A stretch of DNA of 64,000 nt from assembly GCF_055900595.2 (NCBI RefSeq), contig NZ_CM148325.1; one strand, written 5' to 3'. The notes under the pieces were generated by a model. It made no database searches and was not told the origin of the DNA. It saw nothing but the letters and a program-made list of their open reading frames with translations. Below are positions 3,505-43,354 of this stretch, piece after piece. A program made the position numbers and the translations under genes. Each line of letters starts with the position of its first letter. The stretch's first letter is position 1.

Positions 3505-3523
3505 AATAATGATTCTCATTATC
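3505..3523. promoter_or_regulatory. Fur box in the aerobactin (iuc) promoter
   Basis: Sequence aataatgattctcattatc is the reverse complement of the classical GATAATGAGAATCATTATT iron box, 45 bp upstream of the iucA start; divergent from the MFS gene. Confidence 0.85.
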
Positions 3524-5809: not shown

Positions 5810-6132
5810 TTTTTTGCTCGCCCATATTCAACGGCTTCTTTAAGGAGTTCATTTTCCATCGTTTTTTTGCCGAGCAGACGCTGGAGTTCTTTAATCTGCT
5901 TCATGGCGGCAGCAAGTTCAGAGGCAGGAACGACCTGTTCTCCGGCAGCCACAGCAGTAAGACTTCCCTCCTGGTATTGCTTACGCCAGAGAAATAACTG
6001 GCTGGCTGCCACACCATGTTGCCGGGCAACAAGGGAGACCGTCATTCCCGGTTCAAAGCTCTGCTGAACGATAGCGATCTTTTCCTGTGTAGTACGCCGT
6101 CTGCGTTTCTCCGGCCCTAAGACATCAATCAT
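5767..6132 (-). CDS. insC: IS2 InsC (OrfA)
   Basis: Track ORF 5767..6177 trimmed to Met of [18 protein letters not shown]. Confidence 0.9.
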
Positions 6133-6840
6133 CTGTTCTCCAATGACTAGTCTAAAAACTAGTATTAAGACTATCACTTATTTAAGTGATATTGGTTGTC
6201 TGGAGATTCAGGGGGCCAGTCTAACGGTTTACGTTACGCCCTTAGCTACCTGGCTAAACAGGATCAGAAAGAACACGGTATTATTCTGATGCGTAGCAGA
6301 CTTCCCGAAAAAAGTAACCGCGGCCGACCACGACACAACTGAATTACAGCTGTATTAGAATTAAGTTTCCGTAAGTTGTTGGGAGGTGCTTGAGTTAATA
6401 GGCAGCAGAGGGGGCGCTGTAATCAGTGTAGGGGACCCGAATTTCTGCTGTGGTGCTTCAGTGGTTCGGATACAGGTAACGAATATGGTTCATAAATCTG
6501 ACAGTGATGAATTAGCAGCACTGAGGGAAGACATCACTTGAAGCTTATGGGATTGAATGGCGACGTAAACCGCAGAGTCCTGTGCAGTGCGTTTCCGTAT
6601 TATCCACGGATGAGAAAGTTGCGTTATTTCGTCGGTTGTTTCGTGGGCGTAGTGATGTATGGGGCCTTCGATGGGAAAGTAAAACTAGCGGAAAATAAAA
6701 GTACTCGCCTGCCTACGGACCTTTTTACTCAGGGTATTTTTGTTTTCCATAACGTTGCGTATTAACATGAAGGAGAACGAGGGGGATTAGGTAATCTCTT
6801 TCCATGAAAATACGCAAACGTTCATCACCGAAGTGAAAAA

Positions 6841-8722: not shown

Positions 8723-9469
8723 GTGGATGAGGTCGCCTTTAAAAAAGGACATCGTTATATAACGGTGATCTCCGATCGCGATGGTCGTGCGCTGGCCTTA
8801 ACGGACGATCGTGGCACAGAGAGCCTCGCCGGCTATCTTCGCACGCTTACTGACGGGCAGTTGCTGGCTATCAAAACGCTCTCAATGGACATGAATGCAG
8901 GCTATATAAGAGCAGCGCGTATCCACTTACCCTGTGCGGTTGAGAAAATCGCCTTCGACCGCTTCCATGTAGCAAAGCAACTTGGCGAAGTGGTTGATAA
9001 AACCCGTCAGAATGAACATCCGCACCTCCCTGTTGAAAGTTGGCGTCAGGCAAAGGGGACCCGCTTCCTGTGGCAGTACAGCGATAAATGGATGACCAAA
9101 TCCAGGCAGGAAAAGCTGATATGGCTGCGTGCACAGATGAAGCTGACAAGCCAGTGCTGGGCGCTGAAAGAGCTGGCAAAGGATATCTGGAACAGGCCAT
9201 GGAGTGAGGAAAGACGTAATGACTGGGAGAGATGGCTGGCTCTGGCGGCCAACAGTGACGTTCCTATGATGAAAAACGCCGCGAAAACGATAGGAAAAAG
9301 GCTTTACGGGATCCTGAATGCCATGCGACACCGTGTCTCAAACGGAAACGCGGAGGCGCTTAACAGTAAGATCAGGCTACTGAGGATAAAAGCCAGGGGA
9401 TACCGAAATCGGGAGCGCTTTAAGCTGGGCGTGATGTTCCACTACGGGAAACTGAATATGGCGTTCTGA
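8723..9469 (+). pseudogene. ISL3-family transposase, 3' fragment (N-terminus missing)
   Basis: C-terminal motif ...HRVSNGNAEALNSKIRLLRIKARGYRNRERFKLGVMFHYG typical of ISL3 transposases; no N-terminal region upstream; a second, more degenerate copy of the same region abuts IS629 (about 10100-10153 and 11464-11540). Confidence 0.6.
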
Positions 9470-9652
9470 GCCTTCCCACCATGATCAGGGAAAACCCATG
9501 TATCATCAGGTTATTATGTGAGCTGGTAAATCAGATTTTGCATGGACTGAAATCATGCTGTTATTTAGGGATAAAGAACCGGCTTTTTGTCCCGCCCCCT
9601 CGCCATTAATGAAAAAAAGAATGGAATGCTCCCTCTGAGGAGAAGGGCAGTA

Positions 9653-9750
9653 GAAAAAAGAACCCGCCAGCAAAAATATTGGGGATGAACAGCTTTCGCT
9701 ACTCAGATTGCTGGCGGGTATAGTTCCTCATGAAATAAAAATACTACATA
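9653..9750 (-). ncRNA. Candidate Fur-regulated small RNA (about 95 nt), not RyhB
   Basis: Minus strand: TTGACA, 17-bp spacer containing the Fur box, weak -10 (TAAAAG), then about 95 nt ending in a 10-bp GC-rich inverted repeat (CCCGCCAGCA...TGCTGGCGGG) followed by TTCTTTTTT; no ORF with RBS. Confidence 0.3.
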
Positions 9751-9763
9751 ATCCTTTTAATGC

Positions 9764-9782
9764 AAATGATAATCATTGTCAA
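9764..9782. promoter_or_regulatory. Fur-box-like operator overlapping a TTGACA -35 element
   Basis: aaatgataatcattgtcaa matches the Fur consensus GATAATGATAATCATTATC at 15 of 16 aligned positions; on the minus strand it overlaps TTGACA. Confidence 0.5.
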
Positions 9783-10208
9783 TTGTTTGTGCGTGTTTTC
9801 TTCATACATGATTGGTAGTAAAGGTGATTCAGGCTATCAGTTTTTGCTGATGATCTTTTTATCTATAGAAAACATCAGCCAAGCTGGTTGGTTCAGTAAC
9901 GCTTTCATCTTTGAGCATTTTATAAAAAATTCTTGAATTGTTAAAATAGATTAAAGTCTGGTAACAGCAAAAGTTAAACGAGAAATCAAAAGGAGGTCCC
10001 AAATCTGAAAATGAAGCATCTGCGTGATGATGTTGCAGCGGGACGTCGTCGGCTGTATATCAGAGCAATCTGTCCATCCCTGCGTGAAGCCCCGTTACTT
10101 TATTCGTACCCCTTATAATGGGGTGTTAGCCAGCCAGACCCGGCATGATTACTGTGAACCGCCCCGGGAATCCTGGAGACTAAATTCCCTGAGAAAGAGG
10201 TAAACAGG

Positions 10209-10535
10209 ATGACTAAAAATACACGTTTTTCCCCCGAAGTCCGTCAACGGGCAGTTCGTATGGTTCTGGAAAGTCAGGACGAATATGACTCACAATGGGC
10301 GGCAATTTGTTCCATAGCTCCAAAGATTGGCTGTACGCCAGAGACTCTGCGTGTCTGGGTTCGCCAGCATGAGCGGGATACCGGGGGCGGTGATGGTGGG
10401 CTCACCACCGCTGAACGTCAGCGTCTGAAAGAGCTGGAACGTGAAAATCGTGAACTGCGCCGCAGTAACGATATCCTTCGCCAGGCTTCCGCTTATTTTG
10501 CGAAGGCGGAGTTCGACCGCCTCTGGAAAAAATAA
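10209..10535 (+). CDS. IS629 OrfA (108 aa)
   Basis: [23 protein letters not shown]... matches recalled IS629/IS1203 OrfA. Confidence 0.9.
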
Positions 10536-11335
10536 TGCCACTGCTGGATAAGCTGCGTGAGCAGTACGGGGTCGGACCGGTATGCAGTGAACAGCATATT
10601 GCCCCGTCAACGTATTACCATTGTCAGCAGCAGCGGCATCATCCTGATAAACGCAGTGCCCGTTGTCAGCGCGATGACTGGCTGAAGAGAGAGATACAGC
10701 GCGTATACGATGAAAATCATCAGGTGTACGGTGTGCGTAAAGTCTGGCGTCAGTTGTTACGGGAAGGAATCAGGGTGGCCAGATGTACAGTGGCGCGCCT
10801 CATGGCGGTTATGGGACTTGCCGGTGTTCTCCGGGGTAAAAAGGTCCGCACTACCGTCAGCCGGAAAACCGTTGCTGCAGGTGACCGCGTAAACCGTCAG
10901 TTCGTGGCAGAACGTCCTGACCAGCTGTGGGTGGCTGATTTTACTTACGTCAGCACATGGCAGGGCTTCGTCTATGTGGCGTTCATCATTGATGTGTTTG
11001 CCGGATACATCGTGGGGTGGTGGGTCTCATCGTCTATGGAAACGACATTCGTGCTGGATGCGCTGGAGCAGGCGTTGTGGGCCCGCCGTCCGTCCGGCAC
11101 CATCCATCACAGCGATAAAGGCTCTCAGTATGTGTCACTGGCCTATATGGAGCGATTAAAAGAAGCAAAACTGCTGGCATCAACAGGGAGTACAGGCGAC
11201 TCGTATGACAACGCGATGGCGGAGAGCATCAATGGTCTTTACAAAGCGGAGGTAATACACCGTAAGAGCTGGAAAAACCGTGCAGAAGTGGAACTGGCCA
11301 CACTCACGTGGGTGGACTGGTATAACAATCGATGA
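10535..11335 (+). CDS. IS629 OrfB transposase, shortened by a premature stop (266 aa versus about 296)
   Basis: Ends ...TWVDWYNNR then TGA; the expected C-terminus (LLGRLGHTPPAEAEKAYYASIGN) is readable just after the stop. Confidence 0.8.
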   Translation: MPLLDKLREQYGVGPVCSEQHIAPSTYYHCQQQRHHPDKRSARCQRDDWLKREIQRVYDENHQVYGVRKVWRQLLREGIRVARCTVARLMAVMGLAGVLRGKKVRTTVSRKTVAAGDRVNRQFVAERPDQLWVADFTYVSTWQGFVYVAFIIDVFAGYIVGWWVSSSMETTFVLDALEQALWARRPSGTIHHSDKGSQYVSLAYMERLKEAKLLASTGSTGDSYDNAMAESINGLYKAEVIHRKSWKNRAEVELATLTWVDWYNNR

Positions 11336-11985
11336 TTGCTGGGAAGGCTGGGCCATACTCCTCCGGCAGAAGCAGAAAAAGCTTATTATGCTTCCATCGG
11401 AAACAATGATCTGGCAGCCTGAGTTCACAGATAAAACACTCTCCAGGAAACCCGGGGAGGTTCAGTAATATCTGATCGTAACGGACGGACGCTGGAATTA
11501 ACCGATGACCGCAGCACAGAGAGTAGGGGATGCGGACGGTCAAAGATCGTGGAGTTGGATTTTATAAATCTGTCTCCAGTAGTAGATGAACTGAATACAA
11601 AGTTGCCAGAGAGTGGTCTGTCAGGCAGGGAATCAGAAACCGGATATTATTGACTGGTACATTGTGTCGGGCTGTGTACGTTCTCCCCGGACAGACAGTC
11701 TCAGTTCGTAGAATCTATAAATTACTGCTACTGATGCTGCCGGGGAAAGGTGTAACGAAAAAGCAGCCTCCGTTACCGGACAGCAAGAAGGCTGAATGAA
11801 GTTTATGGCGTTTGTATTTTGTAATGTCTGGCCATGCAGTAAATCCAGACAGGTTTTTATTATCATGTGAAGTATTCTGACATAAAATACTAAATTTCTA
11901 TTTTGTGATGAATGCTGCAAAATTGAATCTGCACTCTGATGTAACTTTTATCTGTTTCAGTGAAGCATGCCCACAGATTGAGTTA

Positions 11986-42904: not shown

Positions 42905-43354
42905 GTGGGAGTGCTTAATATCTGGCTTTCTGATTCAACAATCGCATTACGAAAGAATGCCGCAACCTGGCAGCAGGCATTAGATATCTGTGCCAGACCG
43001 TTACTGGATGCAGAGATAATTACGACGGATTATCTCAGTGCGATAAAGACACAACATGAAAAACTGGGGCCTTATTATGTCCTGGCACCCGGGCTGGCCA
43101 TGCCGCATGCCCGACCAGAAGAAGGGGCAAAAGGATTAGGTTTATCATTATTAAAACTTGAAGAAGGTGTCAGTTTTCATACAGAGGAATTTGATCCTGT
43201 AGATGTTATCATTTTACTTGCCGCACCAGACAAACACAGTCATATCGAAATGATATCTGCACTGGCTGAGTTATTCTCCAGCGAAAAAGATTTACATGAA
43301 TTGCATCAGGCTCGCAATGTGGAGGAAATAAAAAAGATAATTTCACGGTTCTGA
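42905..43354 (+). CDS. PTS EIIA component (ascorbate/L-Asc family, PTS_EIIA_2)
   Basis: ...GPYYVLAPGLAMPHARPEEG... resembles UlaC/SgaA-type EIIA; first gene of a five-gene operon. Confidence 0.8.
   Translation: MGVLNIWLSDSTIALRKNAATWQQALDICARPLLDAEIITTDYLSAIKTQHEKLGPYYVLAPGLAMPHARPEEGAKGLGLSLLKLEEGVSFHTEEFDPVDVIILLAAPDKHSHIEMISALAELFSSEKDLHELHQARNVEEIKKIISRF

Follow-up and report, generated by a model that had tools for sequence, protein, structure and literature searches.

The window, that is, the whole 64-kb stretch of DNA that was analysed, carries on its minus strand a compact candidate small-RNA unit, which lies in the remnant of a lambdoid prophage next to a truncated transposase gene. 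Listed by coordinate, the features of the locus are as follows.

8723..9469, plus strand: partial ISL3 transposase gene, truncated, which bounds the prophage remnant downstream of the candidate
9654..9747, minus strand: predicted RNA of ~94 nt, its 5' end inferred from the -10 hexamer
9654..9661, minus strand: T-run TCTTTTTT, directly after the stem
9662..9719, minus strand: terminator hairpin, a 12-bp outer stem enclosing an internal loop and an inner hairpin
9674..9685, minus strand: C-rich stretch UCCCCAAUAUUU within the terminator hairpin, unpaired in the predicted fold
9686..9705, minus strand: inner 8-bp hairpin with a GAAA tetraloop (predicted fold)
9699..9731, minus strand: 10-codon ORF (MRNYTRQQSE*), considered as a product and rejected
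9754..9759, minus strand: -10-like hexamer TAAAAG, matching the consensus at 4/6 positions, with a 17-bp spacer from the -35 hexamer
9762..9780: Fur box, a palindromic operator recognized by its consensus match and its retention among alleles, overlapping the -35 hexamer and the spacer
9777..9782, minus strand: -35 hexamer TTGACA, a perfect consensus
9832..9860, plus strand: decayed remnant of a late-direction terminator hairpin, which in intact prophages precedes the holin gene
9870..9992, plus strand: IS200-like left-end remnant at a deletion junction (Rfam RF01405, STnc490/art200)
10011..10118, plus strand: Rz (i-spanin) gene fragment, an ORF that is annotated as Rz in Nissle 1917

Prophage setting and distribution

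The original prediction placed the unit in an iron-acquisition island, about 6 kb from the aerobactin promoter. The distance holds (6.26 kb to the aerobactin Fur box), but the link to the island appears to be incidental because the same module is found on ColV plasmids and in whole prophages. Judged from these other settings, the unit is not part of the aerobactin cluster and originates in a lambdoid prophage, the remnant of which in the window consists of the Rz fragment, the IS200 remnant and the candidate unit, in this order. Homology to the other alleles stops at ~9500. The IS200-like remnant scores 65.5 bits against RF01405 (gathering score 56) and is ~74% identical to the ends of IS200C; it contains a promoter-like site (TTAACA-16-TAAAAT, 9917-9944, minus strand) that faces the candidate and could cause Fur-independent read-through into it. 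Two IS3-family ALIL frameshift pseudoknots and a match to the AS-pc02 antisense RNA elsewhere in the window (10490-10606 on the plus strand, 59647-59710 and 11657-11835 on the minus strand) are ordinary features of the insertion sequences of the island.

On ColV-type plasmids, the same 360-bp module (~85% identical) is located between an IS remnant and Rz/Rz1-iss, ~2.5 kb from iroB. The gene order in intact prophages is Q antiterminator, DNA methyltransferase, STnc100 sRNA gene, candidate, holin, lysozyme, Rz and iss/bor, with the candidate positioned ~110-240 nt upstream of the holin start codon on the strand opposite to the late genes. Only the converging methyltransferase gene follows 3' of the candidate on its own strand, so the unit is self-contained. 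This disposes of the concern, raised with the original prediction, that the segment might be the untranslated end of a neighbouring gene remnant, since no gene follows the unit in intact prophages; a leader or attenuator of a downstream gene is rejected because those prophages have no such gene. The slot upstream of this holin gene is occupied by at least 16 unrelated sequence classes among 78 viral contigs (the candidate is found in 6 of them), and such diversity marks it as a typical 'moron' insertion site.

Other small-RNA-like sequences share this part of the prophage. The intact prophage locus L003 has a clear STnc100 sRNA gene (6460-6648, minus strand; RF02076, 114.5 bits), which runs in the late direction ~250 nt past the candidate terminator. 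The same locus has, at 6000-6096 on the minus strand (corresponding to about 9781-9860 on the plus strand of the window), a 3' module resembling the SgrS seed plus terminator, which stops ~35 nt short of the holin ATG; GATAAT, the one -10-like hexamer of this module, sits within the same Fur box. The Q-to-holin interval of this prophage type thus holds up to three small-RNA-like units, namely STnc100, the candidate and the possible SgrS-like module.

The module is present in 1,424 of the 5,426 complete E. coli genomes, at 915 chromosomal and 640 plasmid places that include pheV islands, ColV plasmids (beside iss) and prophages. A plasmid database yielded 571 records with the module, mostly from Escherichia with a few from Klebsiella, Salmonella and Shigella. 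A search of a cultured-phage database gave no match, and the exact core pattern had 0 matches among 100,044 species-representative genomes. A looser stem pattern produced 74 matches in the latter set, essentially all in non-enterobacterial taxa, which were read as chance matches without individual checks. Five alleles, differing by ~12-17% over the unit, can be distinguished.

Allele A: this window, Nissle 1917 and many clinical isolates
Allele B: ColV plasmids
Allele C: intact prophages, e.g. of IHE3034, APEC O78 and APEC O18
Alleles D and E: intact prophages

The holin and lysozyme genes have been lost from alleles A and B. These island and ColV alleles make up ~90% of the copies, in which the unit itself is intact, and most copies may be passengers of iss, iro or iuc. 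Two copies from metagenome contigs (L203 and L211) are damaged: in one, the promoter has been replaced by unrelated DNA with the breakpoint at the predicted transcription start, and the other has a deletion just past a shortened T-run. These two resemble knock-out variants of natural origin.

Predicted promoter, operator and RNA

As originally described, a perfect TTGACA on the minus strand (9782-9777) is overlapped by a Fur box (9780-9762). The box, GACAATGATTATCATTTGC, matches the consensus GATAATGATAATCATTATC at 15/19 positions (16/19 when read on the plus strand); it is indeed near-consensus, but the earlier figure of 15/16 came from a shorter alignment and becomes 15/19 on the full 19-bp consensus. 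A scan of the whole 64-kb window ranked it as the second-best Fur-like site after the shared iucA/shiF operator (3505-3523, 17/19), and mononucleotide shuffles of the window gave an expectation of 0.23 sites with at least 15/19 matches. A further 15/19 match, at 43134-43152, lies within a PTS IIA-like ORF (42905-43354) and is probably due to chance. All five alleles retain 14-16/19 matches to the Fur box (counted by hand on the better strand of each).

The -35 hexamer TTGACA is unchanged in every allele that retains the promoter. The other alleles have TAAAAA in place of TAAAAG, and the block CATTAAAA is conserved. The -10 hexamer had been called weak, and it is: TAAAAG matches at 4/6 positions and has no final T, so a strict consensus scan misses the promoter. 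The arrangement that characterizes the class of Fur-repressed sRNAs, an operator (here 15-16/19) placed across the -35 hexamer and the spacer, is present; the stand-alone nature of the unit, likewise characteristic of that class, is seen at the level of sequence.

Downstream of this promoter, the anticipated ~95 nt ending in a GC-rich inverted repeat and a T-run were found as a predicted RNA of ~94 nt with a 12-bp stem, whose arms are ACCCGCCAGCAA (9719-9708) and TTGCTGGCGGGT (9673-9662). The loop of this hairpin had been considered too long for comfort. There are 34 nt between the arms, but the loop is not open, as it is predicted to form the 8-bp hairpin capped by GAAA. A 97-nt stretch spanning the structure has a predicted folding energy of -33.1 kcal/mol (z = -4.82), and none of 200 shuffled sequences was as stable. 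Perfect GC-rich stems with 10 or more bp and a T-run behind them are rare, there being only two in the window, both strands taken together, and none in shuffled sequences; hence, the pairing of the Fur box with such a terminator is improbable by chance. By a rough estimate, the probability that a terminator of this kind would fall by chance 45-120 nt past a top Fur box on the correct strand is ~0.01, i.e. chance is an unlikely explanation. The candidate unit occurs in a single copy in the window.

The outer stem is invariant among the alleles apart from single changes, to an A·C mismatch in allele B (ColV plasmids) and to a G·U pair in locus L023, whereas the two outermost pairs of the inner hairpin are broken in allele D without compensation. 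Over the 26 predicted pairs there were no compensatory changes, 4 one-sided changes and 3 broken cells, the alleles being too similar for these counts to serve as a test of the structure. A metagenome scan found only sub-variants of the unit with unchanged stems. The UCCCCAAUAUUU stretch within the hairpin is nearly invariant and is a candidate region for pairing or for contact with Hfq.

Likeness to known small RNAs

Rfam searches at gathering and permissive thresholds, covering the window, a 171-nt core and the intact-prophage locus, returned no family above threshold for the candidate. In particular, the RyhB model (RF00057) gave no match at its gathering threshold or at E <= 10, in agreement with the original statement that the sequence is distinct from RyhB. 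The best matches, isrD (17 bits) and Esr41 (13.5 bits), were both below threshold and were rejected. A search of the full-text literature with sequence strings and keywords retrieved no earlier description of the unit.

In its architecture the candidate resembles RyhB, PrrF and IsrE/RyhB-2, in which a sigma-70 promoter is likewise overlaid by a Fur operator and the RNA, ~90 nt long, ends at an intrinsic terminator that leaves a U-tail. It differs from the RyhB-type sRNAs in being carried by mobile elements and not by the core genome.

In its position the candidate resembles PasA and PasC (EcOnc51/52) of EPEC and EHEC, which are Northern-validated, Hfq-dependent RNAs (PMC8550237). According to an RIL-seq study of EPEC (E2348/69), they are encoded on the opposite strand between the sialate esterase and holin genes of the prophages PP2 and PP5 (PMC8550237 Table S6). 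The candidate thus occupies the same slot in the same orientation, directly upstream of a class II holin gene and opposite to the late genes. The likeness extends to a TTGACA of their own ~45 nt ahead of a conserved CATG, to a 5' arm of the terminator with GCCAGCA and to the size (79-85 nt for PasA/PasC); unlike that of the candidate, the PasA and PasC promoters have no Fur box. Homology could not be demonstrated either by alignment or with a covariance model: local alignments of the candidate with PasA and PasC were at chance level, global alignments gave z = 2.7 and 1.7, and the covariance model of the candidate (R1) found neither RNA. Moreover, Pas genes are almost never plasmid-borne by BLAST (12/4,600 hits; bioRxiv 10.64898/2026.05.13.724894), as against the 640 plasmid places of the candidate. 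We therefore regard the candidate as a positional and architectural analogue of PasA/PasC and possibly as a very distant relative. In E2348/69 (L106 2765-3045, L107 2330-2462), a second, PasC-like unit that has a TTGACA and a terminator to itself lies in tandem behind PasA; the two point away from the holin gene and neither promoter has a Fur box.

A third likeness is to Esr41, an sRNA from an EHEC island that represses chuA, cirA and bfr (PMC5286369). Both are pathotype-specific and belong to a mobile island near iron-uptake genes, and they faintly resemble each other in the terminator and in the CAUG..CCGCC block ahead of it, although the score of the candidate with the Esr41 model RF02676 (13.5 bits, gathering 102, E 2.4-8.4) is not significant. 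Esr41 adjoins iha in SpLE1, whereas the slot of the candidate is a prophage lysis region, and Fur is not mentioned in the paper that defined the iron targets of Esr41 (PMC5286369). A Fur-controlled promoter of phage is known in the form of the stx1 promoter, which lies in the Q-to-S interval of Stx1 phages (PMC7873438). It is comparable to the predicted promoter of the candidate in belonging to a moron under Fur control between Q and the holin gene of a lambdoid phage, but the genes that it drives encode a protein toxin and are read in the late direction, whereas the candidate is a short non-coding unit on the opposite strand. PapR, the UPEC sRNA that acts on papI, was rejected as a counterpart, as it lies outside the pap island and is Lrp-regulated.

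Published expression data were also consulted. The candidate Fur-box sequences are absent from the supplementary Fur ChIP-seq and RNA-seq tables for strain CFT073 (PMC7157518), which does not have this arrangement by shiF. A CFT073 peak near the extrapolated coordinate (c3636) is unrelated, as sialic-acid genes are located there instead of the remnant. In plasmid pS88, qRT-PCR showed a 5-fold decrease in iron-depleted LB for the hypothetical ORF 132, located between the IS remnant and iss (PMC3438092); this ORF may or may not overlap the unit and the assay had been designed for other purposes, which makes the result ambiguous. When the seed region was scanned for duplexes with 40 linked genes (island, plasmid and phage), nothing exceeded the shuffled controls, and a scan for targets with the whole RNA was uninformative.

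Conservation of the unit and its possible roles

The shares of variable columns were obtained from an alignment with one representative per allele (5 alleles). From the upstream to the downstream side of the unit they are:

Upstream flank: 36%
-35 to -10: 20%
Between the -10 hexamer and the conserved RNA body: 59%
RNA core through the T-run: 16%
Downstream flank: 42-55%

For the predicted RNA as a whole (9654..9747), 23% of the columns vary among the alleles, compared with 36-55% in the flanks. Alleles A and B share an identical run of 60 nt in the core and are ~85% identical otherwise. The candidate terminator is perfect in allele A and has a single mismatch in allele B, while the adjoining late-direction hairpin, which is intact in L003 (GGCCATCAG...CTGATGGCC TTTTTT), is mismatched in the window and on the ColV plasmids. 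This pattern of retention argues for constraint on the promoter and the RNA, though there are further conserved blocks nearby. The sequence case for a stand-alone, Fur-controlled sRNA distinct from RyhB is strengthened because the promoter, the Fur box and the terminator are kept in the five alleles.

From the anatomy of the unit, its statistical rarity, conservation pattern, prophage origin and wide distribution, we lean with modest confidence towards a Fur-repressed, independently terminated small RNA of prophage origin that would have been kept after the decay of the prophage. Under this reading, the ~94-nt RNA gene would have arisen as a 'moron' expressed in the lysogen, at the variable site that immediately precedes the holin gene in a lambdoid prophage. 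Its putative sigma-70 promoter, with a perfect -35 hexamer and a weak A-rich -10 hexamer, would be overlapped by the Fur operator; iron-loaded Fur, when bound, would exclude RNA polymerase, and the promoter would fire under iron limitation. The strong intrinsic terminator would then end transcription and leave a structured RNA with a U-tail. Such tails are typical of Hfq-bound regulators. We infer that the unit is transcribed and repressed by Fur and that its RNA binds Hfq or ProQ; the RNA would most likely act in trans by base-pairing with host mRNAs, which would be its targets. In an intact prophage, it would also match the late transcript immediately ahead of the holin gene with perfect complementarity. 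The unit appears to travel with the iron-uptake and serum-resistance genes of ExPEC.

Four other readings were weighed. The unit could be an inert relic, its similarity reflecting shared recent ancestry and linkage to iss, iro and iuc, with nothing functional made from the island and plasmid copies. Most copies do lie in degraded contexts flanked by IS elements, no covariation was seen, the -10 hexamer is weak, and the two metagenomic copies have lost the promoter or part of the T-run. Against such inertness, the promoter and the RNA core are distinctly less variable in the five alleles than the adjacent non-coding DNA, the late-direction hairpin has decayed in the very copies in which the unit is intact, and chance would rarely put such a Fur box and terminator together. 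We consider this explanation unlikely.

Decidedly less probable, in our view, is a cis-antisense phage regulator that anneals to the late transcript ahead of the holin gene, ties the lysis genes or transcript processing to iron and is vestigial in the window. The position of the unit, upstream of the holin start on the opposite strand and with full complementarity to the late transcript, is what such a regulator would require, but ~90% of the copies, though devoid of holin and lysozyme genes, still hold an intact unit, and the RNA overlaps neither the ribosome-binding site nor the coding region of the holin gene. In addition, a trans mode of action on many host mRNAs is known for PasA and PasC, which share this position (PMC8550237).

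A third reading, which we hold to be quite improbable, is that the Fur box mainly or additionally controls a late-strand SgrS-like RNA of ~85-95 nt, forming a back-to-back pair under one operator. The box is palindromic and could serve the opposite strand equally well; its plus-strand reading contains a good -10 hexamer, GATAAT, and the late strand of L003, taken from the Fur box as far as the hairpin, reaches 24.8 bits with the Rfam SgrS model (E = 4e-5 in a 301-nt search) and ends in a clean terminator. That score is, however, below the SgrS gathering threshold of 37, there is no conserved -35 hexamer in that direction, where it would fall in the most variable stretch (hexamers read by hand), and the hairpin has decayed in the window, whereas the strand of the candidate has the perfect, unchanged TTGACA.

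Finally, it is barely conceivable that a 10-residue peptide (M-R/K-N/K/S-Y/F/H-T-R-Q-Q-S/P-E/K) is translated from the transcript, for although the ATG...TAG frame is kept in 5/5 alleles, it has no Shine-Dalgarno sequence, nearly every codon change alters the amino acid (the one synonymous change is CAG to CAA), and its unchanged codons are exactly those of the terminator stem, so that constraint appears to act on the RNA. Apart from this frame, the only ORF on the strand of the unit is a TTG-started one of 55 aa that begins within the terminator and is not conserved, and the ORFs on the opposite strand vary in length and frame among the alleles; the segment is thus free of any credible ORF, as had been stated at the outset.

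A Fur-repressed small RNA of prophage origin would have a bearing on the regulation of iron metabolism in pathogenic E. coli. A 2021 review of sRNAs in these bacteria mentions RyhB as the sole Fur-regulated sRNA and Esr41 as the sole pathotype-specific sRNA tied to iron (PMC7873438). We put forward, tentatively and as a possibility that we rate as doubtful, that the unit is a second, horizontally mobile Fur-controlled riboregulator of E. coli beside RyhB, which would reprogram host mRNAs under iron starvation. If true, this regulator would be carried by lambdoid prophages, ColV virulence plasmids and pheV islands in about a quarter of the sequenced strains, including the Nissle 1917, ST131-type and ST95/APEC lineages, and in intact prophages it may be paired back to back with an SgrS-like RNA under one Fur operator. 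The iron-starvation response of extraintestinal pathogens would gain a mobile layer of post-transcriptional control, carried beside iss, salmochelin and aerobactin by ColV plasmids and pheV islands; the probiotic strain Nissle 1917 also carries the unit. The notion of the slot upstream of the prophage holin gene as a nursery for host-directed sRNAs would also be widened, now with Fur as a new regulatory input.
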